Part shown: positions 11,947 to 63,968 of the stretch, in pieces
How the letters are laid out: each line of letters starts with the position of its first letter
How positions within the stretch are numbered: position 1 is the stretch's first letter
Assembly: GCA_007376445.1 (NCBI GenBank)
Contig: VMGF01000001.1
Coordinates: forward strand, 21,802 to 85,801
Reading direction: 5' to 3'
DNA: 64,000 nt
DNA from: Parcubacteria group bacterium Gr01-1014_3
GTDB taxonomy: Bacteria; Patescibacteriota; Minisyncoccia; UBA6257; WO2-44-18
Program-made: the position numbers and the translations under genes
Notes under the pieces: generated by a model
Database searches by the model: none
What the model saw: only the letters and a program-made list of their open reading frames with translations
Told to the model about the DNA's origin: nothing

Positions 11947-11993
11947 AGGGTTTTCTCTTTTATAACTTCCGATTTTGAATGTTGGTTTTATTA

Positions 11994-12036
11994 TTCGCAA
12001 TATTAAATCTCTGATTTGTATATTCGCGATTACTCC
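11994..12036 (-). promoter_or_regulatory. conserved 43-nt upstream motif, copy B (before hpf)
   Basis: TTCGCAATATTAAatctctgATTTGTATATTCGCGATTACTCC. Confidence 0.6.
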
Positions 12037-13007
12037 ACATATATCACTTCCTCCTCTAACTTTATGCCGTATTTCTTATCCACGCCAGACTTCACCAGTT
12101 TAATTAACTGCTTCACATCCTCCGCTTTGGCGCCGAGCGCGTTGACGATAAAGTTTGGATGCTTTGGCGAAATCATCGCGCCGCCGAAGCTGACTCCTTT
12201 CAATCCAGCCTGCGAAATAAGGTACGCCGTCGGCACGACCGGGAATGGGTCTTTTTTGATAACTTCCTTGAACTCTGAGTGGAGTTTTTTCGGGACCAGT
12301 CGCAAATCCACATTCTTAAAAATACTGCCGATATTCGGATACTCCAGCGGCTGGCGCGCTTTCCGGTAGGCGATCTTTTCCTCGATCGCCGCGCGGATGG
12401 CTTTCTTGTCGCCTTTTTTCATTTTGAAAACTGCTTCGATAATAATCTCCTTTGGCCCTAAGCCGACTTGCCCTGAGCTTGCCGAAGGGTCGTCGATCTT
12501 GAAAATGCTATTTCGATAACCAAATTTACATTCTGCATTATTGCGCTTCACTATCTTCGGGATCTTGGCAGAAATATCTAGGCTGACAACTTCATTTATA
12601 TTGTCTTTCGTTTCACCACCAAAAGCTCCGGCGTTACCGCGGATTGCGCCACCAACCGTCCCAGGCAGACCGCCAGCCCATTCGAATCCTGAAAGTGATT
12701 TAGTAATTGAGTAATTGAGTAATTCAGAAATCTGCACACCGGCTCCAACCCGGATCAGATTACCTTCCGCTTTTAATAAACCGATCTCCGGCTTTAAAAC
12801 CAGCCCGCCAAAACCCGCGTCGCTGATCAGAAGGTTGGTACCGCCGCCCAGCGTGAAGATCGGGAGTTTTTCCGCGCGCGCTTTTTCCACGGCGCAAACT
12901 ATGTCCTCAACAGTTTTCGCGGCAAAAAAATAGCGGGCAGCGCCGCCAATTTTGTAGTTGCTGTATTTGGCTAATTCGATTTTATTCTCAAACATGCATT
13001 TATTCAT
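12030..13007 (-). CDS. murB: UDP-N-acetylenolpyruvoylglucosamine reductase
   Basis: FAD-binding N-terminus KIGGAARYF...LGGGTNLL, C-terminal MurB domain; contains in-frame GC 20-mer encoding PSASSGQ. Confidence 0.85.
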   Translation of the reverse strand: MNKCMFENKIELAKYSNYKIGGAARYFFAAKTVEDIVCAVEKARAEKLPIFTLGGGTNLLISDAGFGGLVLKPEIGLLKAEGNLIRVGAGVQISELLNYSITKSLSGFEWAGGLPGTVGGAIRGNAGAFGGETKDNINEVVSLDISAKIPKIVKRNNAECKFGYRNSIFKIDDPSASSGQVGLGPKEIIIEAVFKMKKGDKKAIRAAIEEKIAYRKARQPLEYPNIGSIFKNVDLRLVPKKLHSEFKEVIKKDPFPVVPTAYLISQAGLKGVSFGGAMISPKHPNFIVNALGAKAEDVKQLIKLVKSGVDKKYGIKLEEEVIYVE

Positions 13008-13552: not shown

Positions 13553-13563
13553 ATTCCGCCGAT

Positions 13564-17795: not shown

Positions 17796-17804
17796 TTAAT
17801 TTAA

Positions 17805-17847
17805 TTCGCAATATTAATTCTTTTATTTGTACATTCGCGATTACTCC
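17805..17847 (-). promoter_or_regulatory. conserved 43-nt upstream motif, copy C (between ECF sigma and anti-sigma-like gene)
   Basis: TTCGCAATATTAATtcTTTTATTTGTAcATTCGCGATTACTCC; 9 nt from ATG 17795. Confidence 0.6.
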
Positions 17848-18401
17848 GATTCACCATCGGCGGACCGATCTCCCAGTTGTTCCCTGAGAGCATTGAGAGC
17901 GCGGTGCTGGATGAGCCTTACTGCCCCCTCACTTTTACCCAGCGTCGCGGCAATATCGCGATGCGGCAGGTCTTCGATGAATTTCATTATCAAAACGTCT
18001 TGCTGTTCAGGACCCAAGTTCCGCATAGCCTTCTGGATGACTTCCAGACTCAAGATTTTCTCCAGATTGTTTTCCGTCATGTCCACCAGCTTGACCGCGC
18101 TTTCATCCAACTCATCAACGTTGGCATGAAACTTTTTAGTCCGGTAGTGGTCAATGACCTTGTTTCGGGCGATCTGGTAAAGCCAGCTCGAGAATGGAAA
18201 GCCTTGCGACTTATATCCCCGAAGGTTCTGCCAGGCGCTTAAAAACACATCGTGGGTCAAATCTTCGGCCTCATACCGATTAGTGACCTTGAGAAGGATG
18301 AAGCGATAAATTTGAGGCGTGTAGTGGTCGTAAATTTGGCCAAAACACTCCTTTTCGCCCTTCTTAGCCCTATTAATTAATTTATCCTCACCTTCTAGCA
18401 T
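17841..18401 (-). CDS. RNA polymerase ECF-type sigma-70 family factor
   Basis: region 2 (FGQIYDHYTPQIYRFILLKV...DLTHDVFLSAWQNL) and region 4 HTH (DIAATLGKSEGAVRLIQHRALNALR). Confidence 0.85.
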   Translation of the reverse strand: MLEGEDKLINRAKKGEKECFGQIYDHYTPQIYRFILLKVTNRYEAEDLTHDVFLSAWQNLRGYKSQGFPFSSWLYQIARNKVIDHYRTKKFHANVDELDESAVKLVDMTENNLEKILSLEVIQKAMRNLGPEQQDVLIMKFIEDLPHRDIAATLGKSEGAVRLIQHRALNALREQLGDRSADGESE

Positions 18402-20158: not shown

Positions 20159-20500
20159 TTGAATGCTGTCTATATCGCGCTTGAAGCCTTGCGTTTCTCC
20201 AAGAAGGCTGGACATGGTGTCTGCCCGCGCCGGGTCGAGGAGCTCCGGATCGAAATCGAGAACGGAGCCGAAATCCATCCGATCCGGGTGAACGCTCTCG
20301 GCGACGGCACCTACACGATCAAGGACGGTCGCCATCGCGTGAAGGCGCACATCCTCGCCGGTTTCTCGGAGATTCTGGCAGTCATCGAGAATACAGCTAG
20401 CCGAATTAAACGTTTACTAAGAAAGGTTTTTGGTTTCCTCAGCCGCTCGAAAGAGCGGTTTTTTATTGTCGCTACTATCACATGTGATAGTACTATCTAG
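20159..20500 (+). CDS. ParB/sulfiredoxin-like nuclease-domain small protein (TTG start)
   Basis: IKDGRHRVKAHILAG matches ParB N-terminal DGxHR signature; GGAGG SD 6 nt before TTG; 3' end overlaps hairpin terminator and palindrome cluster. Confidence 0.5.
   Translation: MNAVYIALEALRFSKKAGHGVCPRRVEELRIEIENGAEIHPIRVNALGDGTYTIKDGRHRVKAHILAGFSEILAVIENTASRIKRLLRKVFGFLSRSKERFFIVATITCDSTI
20441..20466 (+). terminator. rho-independent terminator at 3' end of ParB-like gene
   Basis: ccgctcgaaagagcgg + ttttttatt. Confidence 0.55.
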
Positions 20501-33808: not shown

Positions 33809-33819
33809 CCCGTTTTTTA

Positions 33820-33860
33820 TTCGCAATATTAATCTTTTATTTGTATATTAGCGATTACTT
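33820..33860 (-). promoter_or_regulatory. conserved 43-nt upstream motif, copy D (before pilM-like gene)
   Basis: TTCGCAATATTAATcTTTTATTTGTATATTaGCGATTACTt; 11 nt from ATG 33808. Confidence 0.55.
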
Positions 33861-34748: not shown

Positions 34749-35595
34749 AATATTTTCTCTAAAACTAGAGAATTGATGTTCCCACCGCACGGACGGTTTT
34801 CCCGTATACGGCGAGCTCAATGCATTTTTTGCTTTAGCTTATAAAGATCACGCAAACCGCTAGGAATAAGGTGTTCGCCTTTGCGGATCCTACGCATAAT
34901 CTCACAGAAAATTTGGAAATCGTACCTCTTTGAAGGAAATCGTAATCGATTTTCTTTGAAAAACGGTATAATTATTTCTGCCAAATCTGTTCTGTTAGCT
35001 ACTTCGAAACGATAGCAATGCTGATGATTTTCGCGATTGTCTTTTTGAAAGTAGACATTCCCGCATTTAAAGTATTCCTTTAAAGCATCCAGTATTACCT
35101 TATCCTTTTCGATAAGCTTTACGTAAAATCTAGGCTCTATCTTTACTCTTCTAGTTGTTCTGTTGATTTGATCAGGATTACGAACATAAGCAGTAAAACT
35201 GCCTTCGCCATCCACCAAACCAACGATGTAATCTTTAGTTAACATTGAGTGAGTGCCTTCATCCCGCTAATCGAGACTACTATGACTCAGCTGACTTCTG
35301 ACGCTGCGTCAGTTTTATGATACCTCGATATTGCTATCGAGAACAGCATCAGATCTCCACAGGTCACGTAAAATTCTCTTCTTAGCATCCTAGACAAGCC
35401 GTAGATAAAGTCTTCCCCGCCCTCACCACCCACTGGCAGGTCGACTGGCTTTGTTAATGTCTGGCTGTTATTTGCTTTCAGATCCTCCACCGAACACCTC
35501 GCGATGCTCGGCTATCTTTTAGCTACGTTCCGATGACGGACATCGGAAGAATGGATTTTAACCATTTAGAAAATTACGCTGCTGCGCGCTTTTAT
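34749..35595 (-). mobile_element. self-splicing-type intron (847 bp) in 16S rRNA near the helix-44 base (E. coli position about 1400), carrying a LAGLIDADG homing endonuclease ORF
   Basis: conserved CCTGTACTCAC | ... | CGCCCGTCA junction is split by non-rRNA sequence containing ORF 34817-35245. Confidence 0.7.
34817..35245 (-). CDS. LAGLIDADG homing endonuclease (intron-encoded)
   Basis: YIVGLVDGEGSF dodecapeptide motif, size 142 aa, located inside 16S intron. Confidence 0.8.
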   Translation of the reverse strand: MLTKDYIVGLVDGEGSFTAYVRNPDQINRTTRRVKIEPRFYVKLIEKDKVILDALKEYFKCGNVYFQKDNRENHQHCYRFEVANRTDLAEIIIPFFKENRLRFPSKRYDFQIFCEIMRRIRKGEHLIPSGLRDLYKLKQKMH

Positions 35596-35912
35596 TGTGA
35601 GTACAGGACTCGAGAACGTATTCACCGTGGTATAGCTGACCCACGATTACTAGCGATTCCAGCTTCATGAGGGCGAGTTGCAGCCCTCAATCTGAACTGA
35701 GGCCATTTTTGATGGGATTAGCTCCGCCTTGCGGCTTGGCAACCCTTTGTAATGGCCATTGTAGCACGAGTGTGGCCCAGGGCATCAGAGGGCCATGCGG
35801 ATTTGACGTCATCCCCGCCTTCCTCCGTGTTAAACACGGCAGTCTCCCGCGACATATAAAACGCAGGATAGGGGTTGCGCTCGTTAACCCACTTAAGGGA
35901 ACGCTTCAAAGT

Positions 35913-35944
<32 letters not shown>

Positions 35945-36067
35945 TCACGTCCTTGAGAGACGACGCACCTTTCGGCGCGTCTTCGTGACCATTTCAAGCC
36001 CTGGTAAGGTTCTTCGTTTATTGTCGAATTAAACCTCATGCTCCACCGCTTGTGCGAGTCCCCGTCT

Positions 36068-36099
<32 letters not shown>

Positions 36100-36609
36100 T
36101 CCCAGGCGGTCAACTTAACGCGTTAGCTACGCCACTCCGAGGGTCGATACTCGAAACAGCAAGTTGACATAGTTTAGGGCGTGGACTACAAGGGTATCTA
36201 ATCCTTTTTGCTCCCCACGCTTTCGTGCAATGAGAGTCAGGAGTGCTCCAGTTAAATGCCTTCGCCTTTGGTATTCCTCACAATATCAACGGATTTCACC
36301 CCTACACCGTGAGTTCTATTAACCTCTAGCACCCTCTAGTCAGGCCGTATCTTCTGCGAGCTTCCCGTTGAGCGGGAAGATTTTACAAAAGACGCACCCG
36401 ACCTCCTGCGCACGCTTTACGCCCAATAAATCCGGATAACGCTCGTGGCCTTCGTATTACCGCGGCTGCTGGCACGAAGTTTGCAGCCACTTATTCCATG
36501 GGTACAATCAATAACTTTTTCCCCATTAAAAGCAGTTTACGATCCGAAGACCTTCATCCTGCACGCGGCGTCGCTCGATCAGACTTTCGTCCATTGTCGA
36601 ATATTCTCG

Positions 36610-36652
<43 letters not shown>

Positions 36653-37419
36653 CGTTGGGGATCAGCCTCTCAGCCCCCCTACCGGTCATAGCCTTGGTGA
36701 GCCATTACCTCACCAACTAGCTGATCGGACCTAGGCCGCTCCCGAAGTGACTTGCGTCTTTCGTCTTTCGACAATATCGGACATTAGTCTATCTTTCGAT
36801 AGATTATTTCCGTCTTCGGGGTGCGTACCAAGGTGTTACTAACCCGTTCGCCACTATACTTTTATCTCTCTTGACTTGATATAATCTCATCTTAATTAAC
36901 AAAAGTACCGTTCGACTTGCATGCCTTATCCACGCCGCCAGCGTTCATCCTGGACCAGGATCAAATCCTCAAAAAAAATTACCGAACATTGAATTTATTT
37001 TAGTAAATTCACCATTCGCTAACTGTTGGGACAACTACAAAATTCTTGACTAAATTTTGACTCGATCTTGATTTTTAATTCTTGGTTGTGTATACAACAC
37101 ACTGCAATTTTCGAAGTTCAGTCGGCTGCGCTTTTTTAATAACGCATCCGGCCCGCTCTCCCTGAATCCCAGAGGGAACCGGCCGGATGAATTAAAACCT
37201 TTATTCACTTGTCGCCTATCTGTGAAAAGAAGTATATATGAAAGCGCTGTTTCGTGTCAACTGTCACAAAACAGCGAATTTTCAATTCTCAATTTTGCAA
37301 TTTTTGTCCCTTCGGGACATCTCCTGTAGGAAGACAATTAATTTACAATGAATTAATGTCCAAACAGTTTGATAATTTTATTTTAAGCATTGAATGAAAA
37401 TTGGTATTTGGAAATTGAA

Positions 37420-38883: not shown

Positions 38884-39618
38884 ATGGAAAAAACTTTCGA
38901 CAAAATCTATCTCGAAGTAAGGGCCGGAACCGGTGGCGATGAAGCTTCGATCTTCGCCGGTGATCTGGTCCATATGTATCAAAAATATGCCGTCAAACAA
39001 GGCTGGCGTTTTAGTATTTCCGATTCCTCCCCTGGCACGATCGGCGGCTACAAGACTTTCATCGGCCGCGTGGATGGCAAGGGTTGCTATGAAGCTTATA
39101 AAAATGAATCCGGCACCCATCGCGTTCAGCGAGTCCCTGCCACGGAAAAGTCCGGTCGGGTACACACTTCCACCGCCACGGTAGCGATTCTCCCGGTCGT
39201 CGAACCAAAAGAAGTTAATTTAAATCCGAGCGATCTCGAGGTTACCTTTTCCCGCGCCGGTGGCCCGGGCGGTCAGAACGTGAACAAGATCGAATCCGCA
39301 GTCCGTATTTTACATAAACCAAGCGGAATCGTGGTTTCTTGCCGTGAAGAACGAGATCAGCGCTCCAACCGCGAACGCGCTATGGAAATGCTTTTGGCTA
39401 AACTCTATGAAATGCAACGCGCCAAAGAATTTGGCGACGTCACCGAAGCCCGCCGCGCTCAAGTTGGCACCGCCGACCGCTCTGAAAAGATCCGCACCTA
39501 CAACTTCCCAGATGATCGCATCACCGACCATCGCTTTGGCGTTAAAATCCACAACGTGGAAGAAGTTTTGAATGGCAACTTTGACGCAATTCTTAAAAAG
39601 ATAAATAAGCAGCCATAA
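38884..39618 (+). CDS. prfA: peptide chain release factor 1, lacking N-terminal domain 1
   Basis: GGQ motif (AGGPGGQNVNK), RF1 codon-recognition tripeptide PAT in RVQRVPATEKSGRVHTS; protein begins at position equivalent to E. coli RF1 residue about 110. Confidence 0.8.
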   Translation: MEKTFDKIYLEVRAGTGGDEASIFAGDLVHMYQKYAVKQGWRFSISDSSPGTIGGYKTFIGRVDGKGCYEAYKNESGTHRVQRVPATEKSGRVHTSTATVAILPVVEPKEVNLNPSDLEVTFSRAGGPGGQNVNKIESAVRILHKPSGIVVSCREERDQRSNRERAMEMLLAKLYEMQRAKEFGDVTEARRAQVGTADRSEKIRTYNFPDDRITDHRFGVKIHNVEEVLNGNFDAILKKINKQP

Positions 39619-39624
39619 AGTTTA

Positions 39625-39690
39625 CCCTGAGCCCGCCGAAGGGTCATTGCGAGCCAACATTCCAACATTCTTGAGAATGTTGGAATGTTG
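39625..39690. repeat. compound repeat after prfA: GC 20-mer CCCTGAGCCCGCCGAAGGGT followed by perfect 36-bp palindrome
   Basis: CAACATTCCAACATTC-TTGA-GAATGTTGGAATGTTG at 39655-39690; 20-mer also at 12471-12490, 54811-54830, variant 58633-58653. Confidence 0.6.
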
Positions 39691-39751
39691 TGCGTGGCAA
39701 TCTTACATTTTTGCAAATAAAAAAACCCGAATCTTATGATTAGGGTTTTTG

Positions 39752-42359: not shown

Positions 42360-42418
42360 TAGCTGAACTCCTTAAAGTGCTAGCCAGATAGTACAATAAA
42401 AGATTGTACTTGGCAAGC

Positions 42419-42588
42419 TTACCCACGCACTAATTTTGCTTATTCAATATTTAAATTTTCTATCTTTAAGTCTTATCTAAATCAAAACAGCGATACGCTA
42501 GGGATCACGGCTATTCGCCGCCCGCGTATCGCTGTTCATATATCTGCAAAATTAGTGCGGGGTTATCGTTTTGTTGCTAAAATTTCGG
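42419..42588. mobile_element. MITE-like 170-bp element with 17-bp terminal inverted repeats, copy 1
   Basis: TIR CCCACGCACTAATTTTGC ... GCAAAATTAGTGCGGGG; internal palindrome ACAGCGATACGC...GCGTATCGCTGT; about 90% identical to 52441-52611. Confidence 0.55.
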
Positions 42589-42754
42589 TCGAAACCAACT
42601 CCTTCGTCGGAACGTCTCGGAGGCGGTTTTGCTTGGTTCAAAAACCGCCGAGAGAGAAGAAAAGTTTGCCGCTGGAGCAAACTTATTCTGGTTCCGAAAA
42701 GGAGTTGGTTGAGGGTACCGAAATTTTAGACAAAACTGATAAAAAATGGCCCGC

Positions 42755-49656: not shown

Positions 49657-50688
49657 CTATTTTCTTTTCAATACTTTTTTCACCGCGCCAACGATATCTT
49701 TCACTCCCATTCCATACTTTTCAATAAGTTCCAGCGGAGCGCCGGATTCGCCAAAGACATTTTGAAGACCGATGAACTCCATCGGTACCGGACACTTTTT
49801 TGCTAAAAACTCCGCGACAGCTCCGCCAAGACCGCCAGAAACCTGATGCTCCTCCACCGTGACCACTGCTCCAGCTTTTTGCGCTACTTCCAAAATCGTG
49901 TGTTCATCGAGCGGTTTTACCGTGTGGCTATTTATCACCGTCACGTTTATTTTTTCTTTTTCCAGTTCTTTGGCGGCAAGCAGAGCGTTGTGAAGTAAAA
50001 GCCCGCAACCAATGATCACCACATCCGGCTTGCCAACTTGTCCTGAGCCCGCCTGCCCCGCCGTGGCGGTGGCCGAAGGATTCCACATTATCTCCGCTTT
50101 TCCAGGAGTAAACGGCGTGTCTTCCGTGGTCATCACCGGAGATTTCTCGCGCGCGAAACGGATATAAGTCGGGCCCCAGAGTTTGGCCGCGGCGATGGTG
50201 GCCTTTTTAGCTTCGATCGCGTCGCAGGGTACAAACACTTTCATATTCGCCAGCACGCGCATTGTGGCGATATCCTCTACTGCCTGATGCGTGGCCCCAT
50301 CTGGCCCCACCGAAATGCCGGCGTGATGCCCGGCGATCTTCACGTTGGAATCGTTGTAGGAAATCGTAGTTCGGATCTGCTCCCAGTTTCGGCCAGGAGA
50401 GAAGGCGGCGTAAGAAGAAATAAAAGGAATCTTTCCGGAAACTCCCAGTCCCGCCGCGATGGCCGCCATATTTTGCTCCGCCACGCCAAGCTCAAAAAAT
50501 CGTTCAGGATATTTTTTCGCGAAAGCTTCAGATCGGGTAGACTCGCTCAAATCCGCGCAAAGCACCACCACATTCGGGTCGGCCTCGCCGGCGATCAAAA
50601 GCCCATCGCCGTAACCATTACGAATAGGCTTTTGATCTACGTCCTTATCAAAAACTTTCGGATTTAGTTTTAGTTCTGGGTTTAACAT
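49657..50688 (-). CDS. tkt: transketolase, C-terminal (pyrimidine-binding) subunit
   Basis: FELGVAEQNM, GATHQAVEDIA; split-gene arrangement with N-terminal subunit upstream. Confidence 0.85.
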   Translation of the reverse strand: MLNPELKLNPKVFDKDVDQKPIRNGYGDGLLIAGEADPNVVVLCADLSESTRSEAFAKKYPERFFELGVAEQNMAAIAAGLGVSGKIPFISSYAAFSPGRNWEQIRTTISYNDSNVKIAGHHAGISVGPDGATHQAVEDIATMRVLANMKVFVPCDAIEAKKATIAAAKLWGPTYIRFAREKSPVMTTEDTPFTPGKAEIMWNPSATATAGQAGSGQVGKPDVVIIGCGLLLHNALLAAKELEKEKINVTVINSHTVKPLDEHTILEVAQKAGAVVTVEEHQVSGGLGGAVAEFLAKKCPVPMEFIGLQNVFGESGAPLELIEKYGMGVKDIVGAVKKVLKRK

Positions 50689-52422: not shown

Positions 52423-52440
52423 GGCTTAAGTATAACAAAA

Positions 52441-52611
52441 TTACCCACGCACTAATTTTGCCTTTTCAATATTTAAATTTTTCTATCTTTAAGTCTTTTT
52501 TAAATTAAAACAGCGATACGCTGGGGATCACGGCTATTCGCCGCCCGCGTATCGCTATTTATATATCTGCAAAATTAGTGCGGGGTTATCGTTTTGTTCC
52601 TAAAATTTCGG
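52441..52611. mobile_element. MITE-like 170-bp element, copy 2 (upstream of rpe)
   Basis: same TIRs and internal palindrome as copy 1. Confidence 0.55.
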
Positions 52612-52652
52612 CTCCTTCGGCAAGCTCAGGATTGAAATTTTAGACAAAGCCG

Positions 52653-53994: not shown

Positions 53995-55044
53995 TTAAAG
54001 ATACTCAGCGGCTTTTTCTACGTGTTGCATCAGTGTAGCCACATACCCGAACTCGTTGTCATACCAGGACAAAACTTTTACTAAATCCCCATCCACGACC
54101 CTGGTGTAGGTCAGATCCACCACCGCGCCGTAAGGTTCACCGATCACATCCGAAGACACGATCTGATCCTCGGCAATTTTCAAAATATTTTTCCACTGGG
54201 CGGATTTTGCGGCTTTGCGGAAAATTTCATTTACTTCCTCTACCGTAGTTTTACGGGAAGCCACGAAAGTAATGTCGGCGAGCGAACCAGCTACGATCGG
54301 CACGCGATAAGCCAAGCCATCAAACTTGCCTTCCAGCTCTGGAATTGGCCGGGTCACGGAAATCGCCGCGCCCGTGAATGACGGAGAGATATTCACCGCC
54401 GCCGCTCGGCCACGCCGGTAATCTTTGCCTTTAGTTGGACCGTCCACCAAATTCTGCGTGGCGGTGTAGCCGTGAACTGTCGCGAGCATCGCTTTTTTAA
54501 CTCCAGGATTCTCCGACATGATCGCGATCACCGGATGAGTAGCGTTGGTAGTACAGGAACCGTTAGAAGTGATCTTGCAGAATTTAAAAGCCTCTTCATT
54601 AATTCCCATCAACACGGTCTTGGCATCATCGCGCTCCGCGTCTTTAGCTGGCGCGGTGATCACCACTCGCCTGGCTCCCGCGGTTAAATGACCTGAGGCC
54701 AATCCGAAAGATTCAAAAGCCCCGGTGGATTCCACGACAATGTCTATCTTTAAGTCTCTCCAGGGAAGCATATTTAATTCTTTTTCCTGGATCACTTTAA
54801 TTTTTCTTTGCCCTGAGCTCGCCGAAGGGTTGCCCACAACTAAATAACCCTCTTCTCCATGGCGTTCTACCTTCACCTCTTGATCATAAGTGCGATAAAC
54901 TGAGTCGTATTTTAATAAGTAAGCTAAATTATCAATGTCACCGAGGTCATTTATAGCCACAATTTCAAAGCCTTTCTTGCCGAACATCTGGCGGAAAAAT
55001 AGCCTACCAATCCGCCCAAAGCCGTTAATTGCGATGCGTGTCAT
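53995..55044 (-). CDS. gap: glyceraldehyde-3-phosphate dehydrogenase
   Basis: INGFGRIGR, SNGSCTTN active-site Cys; contains in-frame GC 20-mer encoding PSASSGQ. Confidence 0.9.
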   Translation of the reverse strand: MTRIAINGFGRIGRLFFRQMFGKKGFEIVAINDLGDIDNLAYLLKYDSVYRTYDQEVKVERHGEEGYLVVGNPSASSGQRKIKVIQEKELNMLPWRDLKIDIVVESTGAFESFGLASGHLTAGARRVVITAPAKDAERDDAKTVLMGINEEAFKFCKITSNGSCTTNATHPVIAIMSENPGVKKAMLATVHGYTATQNLVDGPTKGKDYRRGRAAAVNISPSFTGAAISVTRPIPELEGKFDGLAYRVPIVAGSLADITFVASRKTTVEEVNEIFRKAAKSAQWKNILKIAEDQIVSSDVIGEPYGAVVDLTYTRVVDGDLVKVLSWYDNEFGYVATLMQHVEKAAEYL

Positions 55045-58357: not shown

Positions 58358-58840
58358 TTATTTATGTATTAATCTAAAAACGACAATACCAAAAGCCACG
58401 GCGACATTCAGCGATTCTTTTTTTCCATGCATCGGAATTTCCAAGATTTTATCGGCTTTTTTGAGAATTGCTGGCGATAAACCTCGCACCTCGTTGCCTA
58501 CGACGAGGGCAATTTTCAATTTTAAATTATCAATTTTCAATTTATGATACGGAATAGATTTTTTGGACTGTTCGATCGCGAAAATTTTATATCCCTCTTT
58601 TTTTAATCTATCAATCAGCCTTGAAGTTCCTTGCGCTGAGCGCGCCGAAGCGTCCCACGGCACGCTCTTTTCTCCGCCGAGCGCCACCTTGGTCAACTGC
58701 GGGCGCGGACGGCCAAAAATATCCACCGGCTCAGGCGTGATTCCGCCAAGATAGACTTTTTCTATCCCCGCGGCATCAGCCGTGCGGAAGATTGAGCCGA
58801 CATTATGCAGGCTGCGGATGTTATGAAGAATTGCGATCAT
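58358..58840 (-). CDS. SpoU/TrmH-family RNA 2'-O-methyltransferase
   Basis: LVVGNEVRGLS, NVAVAFGIVVFRL SPOUT motifs; start set at ATG 58840 (MIAILHNIRS) after upstream terminator; contains GC 20-mer variant and AT-rich repeat in frame. Confidence 0.75.
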   Translation of the reverse strand: MIAILHNIRSLHNVGSIFRTADAAGIEKVYLGGITPEPVDIFGRPRPQLTKVALGGEKSVPWDASARSAQGTSRLIDRLKKEGYKIFAIEQSKKSIPYHKLKIDNLKLKIALVVGNEVRGLSPAILKKADKILEIPMHGKKESLNVAVAFGIVVFRLIHK

Positions 58841-58901
58841 CTTATTAATTGTAGCAATAAAAGACCCCGTCCTTTCCTTAGAAAGAGCGGGGTTAACTAT
58901 T

Positions 58902-59174
58902 TTAGCCGCCGGTGAACCGCGTGTTCTCGTAACGAATGACATAGCGCATCTTAGTGCTGGGTGGCATCGCCACGTCAACCTTGGTCGGAGATGTAATACT
59001 GAACTTCCGATGTCTCCGCGCGATCATGCGGGCTGTTTTAGTGTTCAGTGGAATATCATAACCATTGGTTACATTCCGCAAACCAACCAGCTTGTCATCT
59101 TCAAAGGTCGCGAGATACTCGATCCATATTCCTAGCCGCGAATGCTTTCGCCAAAGCTTCCACTCTATTTGCAT
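58902..59174 (-). CDS. hypothetical small protein
   Basis: ORF followed by hairpin terminator 58855-58895. Confidence 0.45.
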   Translation of the reverse strand: MQIEWKLWRKHSRLGIWIEYLATFEDDKLVGLRNVTNGYDIPLNTKTARMIARRHRKFSITSPTKVDVAMPPSTKMRYVIRYENTRFTGG

Positions 59175-61457: not shown

Positions 61458-61481
61458 CTGCCCATAATGGGCAGTTTTTTA
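61458..61481. terminator. bidirectional terminator
   Basis: ctgcccataatgggcag + ttttttattt. Confidence 0.65.
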
Positions 61482-63968
61482 TTTGAAATAATGCCTAGTT
61501 TTGTCGGTGGCTAACAACCGAAGACCGTAGTTGTTGGGTTCATAACCAGGCTGATAGGCGTAATAAGCGAAAGTAAGATAGTCAGTTCCCGCGACCGGAG
61601 CAGTAATGAAATTCTCCGGCACTACCTTGAAGCTATGCAATCCTGGACCGACATTCGCCCAGTTCATTCCATAAGACGCGTGATTCCCGGCCATTCCATT
61701 ACAAGCCCCAGAATTATCCGGCAAAATTAAAGACGCGCCCTTAGTTATTGAGCCGCGACAGTTATCATATTCTATTTTTAATCCATTAGGCGCGTGCAAG
61801 CCCCATGTGCGGTATGGAACTTCGGTGCCGGTAAGGTCTAACCAAAAAATATCATCCGTAACCGGCGCTTCCTGGTTGTAATAAATAATCACCGCGTGCC
61901 AGTTGTTCGGCGCGATCTGGCCAGAGGTTATACTTGGCAGTTGTTTCAAGATAAATGGGTACGCGTCCCAGGTCAGATTAAGTAAATACGGCGAACCGGT
62001 CGCGGTGGCATCTTGGAAAAAATCTACGGCGCTAAAAAATCCGCCTGGATTTTTATTTGCCTGCGTTGTTGGTGAAATTAAGCCATCTTTATCTTTAGTA
62101 ATAATTTCAAAAGAATAATCCCGGCCAAGCTCAGCGATAATTCTCTTATACTGCCCCACCGAAGTGGTGGCAAGAGGCGTTGAACTGCCCGACAATATTT
62201 CTGCTAACGAATAAGTTAAATCGGGCAAGACATCCCAGTTTAAAATCAGCTCCATAGCCTGGGAGCTGAAGGTAGCATTGAAGTTGTTAACCGCGGCGGG
62301 CGCGGATCTCGGCTCCGGTAAACTGGTTTTATTTTGAGGTGCTGGCAGATCACGAACTTCCCAATCGGCTTGTGGTGAGCTTGCCGAACCATCCGTATCG
62401 CATCCGTTTCCTAAGAATTCGCCGCTACCGCTAGCGGTAACACAATCGTTCTGCCAAGCCTTCCTTTCCAGGCTGTAACCCGGAGAAAAACCGGTCAGCG
62501 CGCTAGTATCATAGTGAGCTGCGTCCACTCCGCTCGGGCTGGAAGTTGAAATATAATCAGTTGAATTAACCAGATAAATTGTTGCCGAAGTGTTGCTCAA
62601 GCTTCCGCTCGACCACAAGAGATCGCCAGCGCTATTCCCTCCCAACCAGATCAGGAAAAAACTTTTGGCCGCGACTGAATTTCCGGCTTCAAAGTTCTTC
62701 TTAGTTAAACTACCGGTTGAAGAAAGGTGTTGAATTGACCAGCTCGATAAATCCACGGCCTGATCGGTCGGGTTATATAGTTCGATCCATTCCTGATTTG
62801 TGTCCGCGCCTACAGCATCAAATAGAATTTCGCTGATAACTAAATGGCTGGCTTGCCCCGCCGTGACGATGGCCGGTTGTTGGGTTTGAGGGGGCTGTGG
62901 TTCGTTGTTTGTCGTTGGTTGTGAAGTTACTTGCGGTGCTGGCGGTGGCGTACTCGTGGTACTTGCGCCTGTCGGATTAAATGGCATCGTCCCAGCGCTG
63001 TTTTGAGCTTTAGGCGTACCATAAATGCCGTTCGTGGCGTTACCATCATAATTCCGCCAGGATAAATCCGCCTGGCGCTCCATCGTGCGCTTGCTGGAAT
63101 TATCCCCAGCTGACCAATCTGGCGCAGCCATTGCCTCATCAGCCAAATCACAATTTGAATTAAATAGCCTTAAGCCCTCACCGACATTGGATAGCGCGCC
63201 GGTATACTTTTGGTCCATGGTAACTCCTGGCACAGAATTATCATCAGTTCTTTCTAATAAATAAAATCCGCCGGGAACAAGTTTCCCGGTTAGTTTGGCC
63301 TTGATGTCATCGCCCATATCCAAAACCTGCCAACCGGAAAGATCAATTTCTTGGCCGGAGATATTTTTCAGCTCAATCCACTCGTCGCTGGTGCTGTTCA
63401 CCGAGCCCATCCAGGCAACCTCATTGATAACTAACTTTTTGTCATTCTGAGGAAGTTTGACGACCGAAGAATCTCCAAAAGAACACAGGTTAAGCGCGAC
63501 TATCTCTACCGGTATCGGCTCTATGATTTTTGGTGTTGGGACGATTTTTGGTTCAGTCGCCTGGACCACTGGCTCGATGACGTTGACCACGCTTGCGACG
63601 GGTTTTGGCGGTGCTGTGGGCGCAGGCTTGCCCACCGTAGCTTTAGCGGAGGTGGGCACCGGAACCTCCGGCACATTAGTCGTGGTATGAATCTCTGCTA
63701 GTACATCATATGGGCTCGTCGACTCCGCTCCACCAAAAATCTGATTAAAACCATCAACTAAAGTTCCCAGAAACGGCCGCCTCTGCTTTTCCAGCGTTAA
63801 CGCCTTTTTAGCCTTTTCGGCTTCTTGGAAAAATAAATTTATCGCGCCAGCCACATGCTGGGCGGCTTTGGTCGAGAGACGGAACCAGTAGTCTTGTAAT
63901 ACTGATTTTTCCTTTGCGTCATCTAATATCAGACTCTCCGATTTCCACAAGTTTTCACCGTCATCCAA
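61479..63968 (-). CDS. large lamin-tail-domain (LTD) containing protein with Pro/Thr-rich linkers
   Basis: two LTD-like segments (NEVAWMGSVNSTSDEWIELKNISGQEIDLSGWQV; NQEWIELYNPTDQAVDLSSWSI). Confidence 0.7.
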   Translation of the reverse strand: MDDGENLWKSESLILDDAKEKSVLQDYWFRLSTKAAQHVAGAINLFFQEAEKAKKALTLEKQRRPFLGTLVDGFNQIFGGAESTSPYDVLAEIHTTTNVPEVPVPTSAKATVGKPAPTAPPKPVASVVNVIEPVVQATEPKIVPTPKIIEPIPVEIVALNLCSFGDSSVVKLPQNDKKLVINEVAWMGSVNSTSDEWIELKNISGQEIDLSGWQVLDMGDDIKAKLTGKLVPGGFYLLERTDDNSVPGVTMDQKYTGALSNVGEGLRLFNSNCDLADEAMAAPDWSAGDNSSKRTMERQADLSWRNYDGNATNGIYGTPKAQNSAGTMPFNPTGASTTSTPPPAPQVTSQPTTNNEPQPPQTQQPAIVTAGQASHLVISEILFDAVGADTNQEWIELYNPTDQAVDLSSWSIQHLSSTGSLTKKNFEAGNSVAAKSFFLIWLGGNSAGDLLWSSGSLSNTSATIYLVNSTDYISTSSPSGVDAAHYDTSALTGFSPGYSLERKAWQNDCVTASGSGEFLGNGCDTDGSASSPQADWEVRDLPAPQNKTSLPEPRSAPAAVNNFNATFSSQAMELILNWDVLPDLTYSLAEILSGSSTPLATTSVGQYKRIIAELGRDYSFEIITKDKDGLISPTTQANKNPGGFFSAVDFFQDATATGSPYLLNLTWDAYPFILKQLPSITSGQIAPNNWHAVIIYYNQEAPVTDDIFWLDLTGTEVPYRTWGLHAPNGLKIEYDNCRGSITKGASLILPDNSGACNGMAGNHASYGMNWANVGPGLHSFKVVPENFITAPVAGTDYLTFAYYAYQPGYEPNNYGLRLLATDKTRHYFK

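Follow-up and report, generated by a model that had tools for sequence, protein, structure and literature searches.

A 20-nt sequence, CCCTGAGCTCGCCGAAGGGT, recurs in a 64-kb stretch of the genome of Parcubacteria group bacterium Gr01-1014_3 (contig VMGF01000001.1, positions 21,802 to 85,801; hereafter the window), where it lies within murB, gap and spoU and also between genes. Our analysis indicates, with a probability that we put at roughly 0.7, that this 20-mer forms the core of an interspersed hairpin repeat, 21-23 nt long, which represents a cross-phylum family in Parcubacteria and would be mobilised in trans as a single-stranded hairpin. The unit inserts, sometimes as 1.5 units or with a nested 21-nt piece, and leaves no recognisable target-site duplication. 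Many copies in this compact genome land in coding DNA, where the surviving ones are multiples of three nucleotides, occupy solvent-exposed turns (Gly-Lys beta-turns in GAPDH and MurB) and are filtered to in-frame, stop-free and hydrophilic readings.

Seven copies of one unit in the window

We searched the window for CCCTGAGCTCGCCGAAGGGT with up to three mismatches. Matches at 12471-12490 (one mismatch), 39625-39644 (one), 54811-54830 (none) and 58634-58653 (three) recovered all four copies named in a preliminary description of this DNA, the last of them starting at 58634 and not at 58633 as given there. Only 0.01 matches to this pattern are expected by chance and none of 100 shuffles yielded four or more, which bears out the earlier contention that the recurrence is beyond coincidence. 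Three copies had nonetheless been missed (50041-50080, 52613-52631 and 62373-62391), bringing the total to seven: five in frame within genes (murB, gap, spoU, the gene for a transketolase C-terminal half and that for an LTD-domain protein) and two intergenic.

Alignment of the window copies gave a 23-nt consensus unit, TTG-NNNT-GAGCYYGCCGA-ANNN-T, and a de novo repeat search independently retrieved the 23-nt family with five copies (D9). The conserved part is a centre of 11-13 nt (TGAGCYYGYCGAA) flanked by a short stem. A search for the centre GAGC..G.CGA bordered on both sides by any complementary 4-mer returned six copies, with the stems CCCT/AGGG (three times), CGCT/AGCG, TGGT/ACCA and TCCT/AGGA; because several complementary stems surround one centre, the stem covaries and the centre is fixed. 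The palindrome of consequence is this outer, covarying 4-bp stem. The internal GAGCTC that had been singled out is present in the gap copy only, the others having GAGCTT, GAGCCC or GAGCGC, and is therefore not a family feature. The repeat is only moderately GC-rich against the 46.5% GC of the window. At the 5' edge, four of the seven copies show CTTG and one TTTG. The GC skew of the window is negative throughout, and the GAGC strand coincides with the plus strand in six of the seven units.

The four simple genic copies share a single orientation, with the GAGC strand antisense to the mRNA, and a single frame. Since this combination yields a small hydrophilic peptide, xSA[S/R]SxQ, the genic copies are read through and tolerated. 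The minus-strand peptides reported earlier, PSASSGQ in MurB and GAPDH and ASARSAQ in SpoU, proved correct.

The element acts at the DNA level

What recurs is a DNA element and not a protein motif, because unrelated genes use identical codons for it (CCT TCG GCN AGC TCA GGG CAA), intergenic copies exist, and MurB homologues read the same DNA in another frame (QPFGKLRA). To say that PSASSGQ is instead a convergent motif, a flexible linker or modification site shared by several enzymes, is to accept a highly improbable account: the four simple genic copies do use one frame and place a Ser/Ala/Gly-rich peptide in exposed loops, but synonymous positions are identical across unrelated genes and lineages, the same DNA lies between genes and is read as PFGKLRA, PE[LP][AV]EG or LRQAQ in other frames, and the closest orthologues function without the segment.

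Pairing of the stem was assessed on units from metagenome contigs and IMG/VR viral contigs, which were scanned with patterns that left the outer stem positions free; here and below, figures for sequences outside the window refer to the matches listed. In a set of 142 distinct units from unrelated viral contigs, for which the pattern left two stem pairs free, these were paired in 86% and 80% of units, with CG, GC, AU and UA all present. The covariation score of 0.38 compared with 0.10-0.18 for slid controls and was reached in none of 500 shuffles. Across the metagenome and IMG/VR matches listed, free outer stem positions were 66-87% Watson-Crick, again with all four pair types. G.T wobbles exceeded A.C mismatches on the GAGC strand, which suggests that this is the folding strand. 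Moreover, a covariance model built solely from unrelated viral-contig units returned the six simple copies as its top six matches in the window (E-values 1e-4 to 0.25).

In-frame insertions in GAPDH and MurB

For GAPDH and SpoU, the 120 closest homologues of each protein were compared. The gap unit, TTG-CCCT-GAGCTCGCCGA-AGGG-T (54808..54830, plus strand, within the minus-strand open reading frame (ORF) 53995-55044), encodes PSASSGQ and amounts to a net insertion of 21 nt. It corresponds to an exact seven-residue gap in the solved structures 2ep7 and 1hdg, and the segment is missing from 116 of the 120 homologues, including the closest one (P0002, 89% identity). At this site the element was found only in the query, P0003 and P0007 (74-75% identity); P0071 carries it as DPSASSGQVG in another loop. 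An empty allele reads GTG GGT GGC AAA AAA and the filled one GTG GGC AAC CCT TCG GCG AGC TCA GGG CAA AGA AAA. No target-site duplication was recognisable when filled and empty alleles of gap and murB were compared; the GGCAA...GGCAA of gap was considered as one and rejected, its 22-nt period being out of phase with the 21-nt insertion.

The AlphaFold2 model of GAPDH (mean pLDDT 86.8, and 86 for residues 71-80) places the inserted residues 73-79 in a loop (72-78) flanked by predicted strands 65-71 and 79-85, with an overlap into the beginning of the latter; the insertion is predicted to make a beta-hairpin loop. Many Parcubacteria GAPDHs (P0004, P0005 and others) have an extra loop, xRDPSGVGGEL, precisely where P0071 has DRDPSASSGQVGSL; this loop may derive from a copy that became fixed and has decayed.

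The murB insertion (12453..12490, plus strand, within the minus-strand ORF 12030-13007) is composite. Its full unit, TTG-CCCT-GAGCTTGCCGA-AGGG (12468-12490), comes after a degenerate half unit, TGG-CCCT-AAGC-CGAC, and together they encode PSASSGQVGLGP, 36 nt replacing one Gly codon for a net gain of 33 nt. The resulting 11-residue insertion aligns to a gap in solved structures and is lacking in the two closest homologues (90% and 81% identity), which read FKI-ND-GK-EVI where the window protein reads FKI-DD-PSASSGQVGLGP-K-EII. Homologue P0124 (76%) has the architecture of the window protein; NPSASSG[RQ] is found in P0125 and P0128, its position shifted, QPFGKLRA[GS] in P0202 and P0218 represents the same DNA in another frame, and P0127 has a related VPERSRG type. 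Because the element occurs there in different frames and offsets, the beta-turn of MurB appears, from these alignments, to have received it several times independently, in at least three offsets or frames.

These comparisons support the earlier proposal of a family of small repeats inserted in frame in essential enzymes: GAPDH shows a clean seven-residue gap, and the MurB insertion has no counterpart in the two closest homologues. Distant orthologues did not encode the same heptapeptide at the position concerned, and a few other Parcubacteria at 74-76% identity do have the element there. The closest available homologues of gap, murB and spoU (loci L003, L370 and L374; 86-90% amino acid identity) all lack the element; their records are two NCBI assemblies (GCA_040960175.1 and GCA_040960315.1) and one ENA groundwater assembly.

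Copies in SpoU, transketolase and an LTD-domain protein

The spoU unit, TTG-CGCT-GAGCGCGCCGA-AGCG-T, maps to 58631..58653 on the plus strand within the SpoU/TrmH methyltransferase ORF 58358-58978 (minus) and is read as ASARSAQ. It is inserted, as had been proposed, since the segment aligns to a gap in solved structures; it is, however, old rather than recent. The motif D[AG]SARS[AP][QR] occurs in 72 of the 120 closest homologues, which marks the SpoU insertion as an old, widely inherited copy, yet it is missing from the closest one (86% identity). Its first and sixth residues covary in these 72 homologues, with 43 A/A and 15 G/P pairs and neither A/P nor G/A, where independence would give ~13 A/P and ~10 G/A. 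In the DNA of three genes the unusual loop GAGCGCGCCGA is constant, whereas the stems are CGCT/AGCG, TGGT/ACCA and GCT/AGC. At this orthologous position in coding DNA, a C:G pair has thus been exchanged for G:C in a compensatory change.

The transketolase copy, TCCT-GAGCCC[GCCTGCCCCGCCGTGGCGGTG]GCCGA-AGGA (50041..50080, plus strand, in the minus-strand gene 49657-50688), is interrupted. A 21-nt in-frame piece, GCCTGCCCCGCCGTGGCGGTG, is nested at 50051-50071 inside the loop of the unit and read as TATAGQA, so that the segment as a whole encodes NPSA-TATAGQA-GSGQ; in an alignment with the split transketolase 6yaj it falls in a gap of 15 residues. SpoU homologue P0258, from another organism, has ATATAGQ nested at the same position of the unit. 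The nested piece could represent another very small element; alternatively, the loop of the unit might be a hot spot for insertions. The LTD-domain unit, TTG-TGGT-GAGCTTGCCGA-ACCA-T, lies at 62370..62392 (core 62373-62391, plus strand) in an 829-residue ORF (61479-63968, minus) and is read as GSASSPQ; the same protein holds a related TAGQA piece at 62854-62864.

Occurrence beyond this genome

The repeat family is not particular to this genome, the window copies being a local variant of a cross-phylum family. Scanning one genome per species with the pattern CCCTTCGNCNNGCTCAGGG returned at least 141 matches. Those listed span Bacteroidota, Cyanobacteria, Chloroflexota, Acidobacteriota, Actinomycetota, Alpha-, Beta- and Gammaproteobacteria, Deltaproteobacteria-type lineages (Syntrophaceae, Anaeromyxobacter), Planctomycetota, Nitrospirota, NC10, Verrucomicrobiota, several lineages of the candidate phyla radiation (CPR) and others, in genomes of 31% to 75% GC. 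The three free positions of the pattern read A in 120 of 141 matches and AA or AG in 120 of 141 (85% each), a strongly non-random outcome which argues that the matches are not due to chance. The element is likewise present in IMG/VR viral contigs, metagenome contigs and plasmids.

Units occur singly, as inverted doublets or in tandem arrays, and 15 of the genome loci listed have more than one copy. The doublet (CCGTTCG-stem-GAGCYTGTCGA-stem ... complement-CGAACGG) accounts for 117 of 526 units among the matches listed. Outside the window, CPR-like units have GCYTG as their 5' flank and units of other phyla CCGTTCG; no conservation is seen in the 3' flank. On plasmids the doublet reaches up to 14 matching places per Sphingobium megaplasmid record and is found as well in Polaromonas, Comamonas, Variovorax and Moraxella, always in unannotated intergenic DNA; in the two clearest of three inspected plasmid regions the genes on either side of it run in the same direction, those of an RND efflux pair in one and of a siderophore-uptake cluster in the other. 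The doublet query gave no match in 5,426 E. coli genomes or 50,697 cultured-phage records; the element is therefore not found everywhere.

Of the units listed from low-GC contigs, between a third and a half fall in ORFs of at least 150 residues. Coding copies outside the window use every frame except the one that contains TGA (PSASSGQ, PE[LP][AV]EG, LRQAQ, FDKL). Intergenic units among the matches listed are nearer to the 3' than to the 5' ends of genes, and they show no orientation preference with respect to transcription (24 sense, 23 antisense). The GAGC strand is the C-rich strand at 132 of the 202 loci listed (p = 1.5e-5), and the bias with respect to gene orientation is weaker (115 of 202, p = 0.057). 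Genes linked to the units were sought by all-against-all BLASTP of 3,837 ORFs within 2 kb of them; only phage structural genes recurred, in a few viral contigs.

Proposed mobility and possible host use of the hairpin

In the mechanism that we favour, the unit would be non-autonomous, and an HUH-type nuclease or transposase acting in trans, related to RAYT and IS200-IS605 enzymes or to IS91, would copy it in the form of a single-stranded DNA hairpin. We infer an HUH-type enzyme from the lack of a target-site duplication, the conserved 5' edge, the IS91-like CTTG/GTTC tetranucleotides and the orientation bias towards the C-rich strand. Old copies would retain their pairing because the hairpin may also have a host-level role, as REP elements do.

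Several observations weigh against this explanation. No transposase or other gene recurs beside the units at ~360 loci, and none was identified in the window. Secondary structure, raised in the preliminary description, finds support in stem covariation, whereas by folding energy single units fold no better than shuffled sequence; the structural argument therefore rests on covariation alone. The orientation signal relative to GC skew was obtained on short loci and is in part confounded with the orientation of genes. REP elements are species-specific, and a centre that is nearly identical in different phyla is unusual among them. For GAPDH and MurB, repeated gain cannot be told apart from a single shared insertion in an ancestor that was later lost precisely, and junction substitutions between filled and empty alleles leave the exact boundaries ambiguous. 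Finally, the compensatory change of the SpoU stem points to selection at that locus, which pure selfish mobility does not predict.

This last observation leads to the most serious alternative, which overlaps with trans-mobilisation and which we regard as possible though rather unlikely, namely that the hairpin is mainly a host cis-element whose conserved loop is bound, on single-stranded DNA or RNA, by a widespread protein or RNA. It could act in REP-like protection of transcript ends, in attenuation, or as a replication or topology site, genic copies being kept as useful structure. A loop nearly invariant among carriers from 31% to 75% GC fits this view, as do the SpoU stem that changes from CGCT/AGCG to TGGT/ACCA around an unaltered GAGCGCGCCGA, the exclusive A/A and G/P pairs of the 72 SpoU homologues, the excess of G.T wobbles on the GAGC strand, the proximity of intergenic units to gene 3' ends and the lack of a linked transposase. 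On the other hand, the presence of the element is patchy, down to none in the E. coli and cultured-phage sets; the closest relatives have no copies in three genes; intergenic units are equally often sense and antisense; and tandem arrays and nested insertions resemble proliferation rather than regulation. The SpoU covariation, moreover, was taken from the amino acids of phylogenetically related homologues. Mobilisation in trans and host use are compatible, and the SpoU compensatory change together with the cross-phylum invariance of the loop suggests that the host, too, recognises or uses the hairpin. A bolder version, which we put forward only tentatively, is that this uncatalogued cross-phylum hairpin, with its variable stem and highly conserved 13-nt centre TGAGCYYGYCGAA, may be the recognition site of one conserved or widely transferred enzyme acting on single-stranded nucleic acid, that its pairing may be selected even within ORFs, and that it may represent a new class of REP-like elements or cis-signals remodelling CPR protein loops.

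Excision of the genic units as mini-introns, or their bypass in translation, would leave the enzymes unaltered. The unit has a structure, CPR genomes have unusual introns in rRNA genes, and the window contains a fragment of a group II intron beside its 16S gene, but nothing direct speaks for such processing. The genic copies are all multiples of 3 nt, stop-free and in a tolerated frame, which would be needless if they were excised; the TGA-containing frame is never used; and AlphaFold puts the GAPDH insertion in a loop between two predicted strands (mean pLDDT 86 for residues 71-80). We consider this account very improbable. An assembly, chimera or contamination artefact, conceivable insofar as the window derives from a metagenome-assembled genome, is practically negligible, since ENA, Logan and NCBI records contain independent assemblies of the identical GAPDH protein and locus and units with different flanks are found in isolate genomes and complete plasmids.

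Intergenic units and other repeats of the window

The prfA-proximal unit, TTT-ACCCT-GAGCCCGCCGA-AGGGT (39622..39644, plus strand), begins 5 nt past the prfA stop codon (39616-39618), in keeping with the placement just after that gene proposed earlier. Directly after it, at 39643-39700, comes a second, unrelated hairpin element, GTCATTGCGAGC-(CAACATTCCAACATTC TTGA GAATGTTGGAATGTTG)-TGCGTGGCAATC, which presumably resembles the (C/T)GTC-tagged REP type, and past this a bidirectional terminator-like hairpin at ~39715-39750.

The other intergenic unit, TCCT-GAGCTTGCCGA-AGGA, lies downstream of a NUDIX gene on the minus strand (52613-52631, within 52600..52645). It crowns the tip of a longer AT-rich hairpin, CTAAAATTTC...GAAATTTTAG, whose folding z-score is -2.5 to -3.1, and abuts one copy of a ~175-nt intergenic repeat. 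The two copies of this repeat (42415-42590 and 52437-52612) are 10 kb apart and ~94% identical, contain a hairpin (AGCGATACGC...GCGTATCGCT) and have no Rfam match. The second copy adjoins the hairpin unit at 52613; the first is followed by CTCCTTCGTCGGAACGTCTCGGAGG, possibly a diverged hairpin unit.

Other features of the window include a short 16S rRNA gene of 1,427 nt (35550-36976, minus strand) and, ~200 nt downstream of it, an intron fragment matching Rfam group-II-D1D4-1 (35254-35345, minus strand; 37.9 bits against a gathering score of 35). A motif in four copies, TTCGCAATATTAA-N-TTTGTATATTCGCGATTACT, at 766-814, 11989-12037, 17800-17848 and 33815-33859 (75-93% mutual identity; D7, D10, D11), looks like a promoter or operator. 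Also present are a repeated palindrome, TACTATCACGCGTGATAGTA, at 20473, 40287, 40705 and 41687 (D14, D17), many intergenic AT-rich arrays of AATTTTAAATTTT (D1-D3) and a 45-nt sequence that recurs without change at 13556 and 13995 (D16).

Relation to known repeats

The family is apparently undescribed. At the gathering score, Rfam 15 identified only rRNA, tRNA, the group II intron fragment and signal recognition particle (SRP) RNA in the window and 18 loci, with no family for the element, and in E-value mode two elements matched only generic hairpins (a miRNA model). Pfam and NCBIfam contained no family for six translations of the element. Literature searches by DNA or peptide strings gave nothing or chance primer matches only, and searches by concept brought up papers on repetitive extragenic palindromic (REP) sequences, the element not among them. 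It appears neither in the main text or supplement of PMC3733652, whose supplementary table of intragenic REPs lacks the peptides DKLR, SLSK, SSGQ and RQAQ, nor in PMC6006769. Among other candidates, a miniature inverted-repeat transposable element was rejected on size (a 21-nt unit against 50-500 bp) and for want of an in-phase target-site duplication, and an intrinsic terminator because the 3' flank is not T-rich and single units fold no better than shuffled sequence. Hammerhead cores, tRNA T-arms or D-arms, integron attC sites, DNA uptake sequences, group II intron domain V, parS and dif were considered as well, on sequence grounds, and none fits. We know of no paper describing the element.

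If truly undescribed, it would rank with the most widespread short repeats of bacteria. Peptides translated from it (PFDKLRA.., SLSKG.., LRQAQ.., PE[LP]VEG, PSASSGQ) contaminate many predicted metagenome proteins, and the covariance model (R1) could flag them; PFDKLRANG, SLSKG and similar strings we take to be common junk peptides of metagenome ORFs. The element supplies CPR core enzymes (GAPDH, MurB, transketolase, TrmH) with in-frame loop insertions, and since its presence differs between close lineages, it offers strain markers and natural experiments on loop tolerance. That many phyla share the loop while the stem is free implies a single recognising machine, the identity of which could explain how REP-like elements without a RAYT gene move.

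Of the systems compared, HUH substrates (those of IS200/IS605 TnpA, RAYT and IS91) share with the element a hairpin with an adjacent conserved tetranucleotide, the lack of a duplication and a strand or orientation bias. IS91 elements use the targets 5'-CTTG and 5'-GTTC, have subterminal palindromes and make no duplication (PMC13181058), and CTTG and GTTC also stand at the 5' edge of our units. Unlike these substrates, the element has no linked transposase at ~360 loci and is far below any insertion sequence in size; the resemblance is a lead and not evidence of membership. Rickettsia palindromic elements, reportedly described by Ogata et al. in 2000, are also palindromic, lie in frame in genes, including essential ones, at fold-compatible sites, and are translated as extra surface segments. 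RPE-1-type elements are, however, ~100-150 bp long and restricted to Rickettsia, whereas the present unit has 21 nt (7 codons), another sequence and a cross-phylum range. Mobile GC clusters of yeast mitochondria, short GC-rich palindromes that spread in a less GC-rich genome and lie in frame in var1, offer a further parallel in their palindromic, in-frame genic units, but differ in domain of life, sequence and size, and no homology is implied.

In the way it works the element is like Rickettsia palindromic elements where it lies inside genes, and more generally like REPs and the related BIMEs and REPINs, short (about 20-40 nt) imperfect palindromes that are interspersed, mostly intergenic within operons or at gene ends, and can form long hairpins as head-to-head doublets. 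REPs fall into GTAG- and CGTC-tagged super-families; intragenic copies, occasionally in frame, are documented, and no dedicated transposase is known for CGTC repeats (Di Nocera et al. 2013, PMC3733652). The unit described here, of 19-23 nt and with a covarying stem of 4-7 bp, is a palindrome of this kind, but its 5' flanks are YTTG or CCGTTCG and carry neither a GTAG nor a CGTC tag. It is conserved in its 11-13-nt centre rather than in stem and tag, and this centre is common to many phyla, whereas REPs are species- or genus-specific. Doublets comparable to REPINs are common elsewhere and absent from the window, and no recurrent neighbouring gene, such as the RAYT gene that REPs flank in a REPtron, accompanies the units at the ~360 loci. 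Five of the seven copies of the window are genic, in contrast to the intergenic, multi-copy units of plasmids and other phyla. We class the family as REP-like, a hairpin repeat whose conservation across phyla is centred on the loop and which inserts in frame as seven codons.

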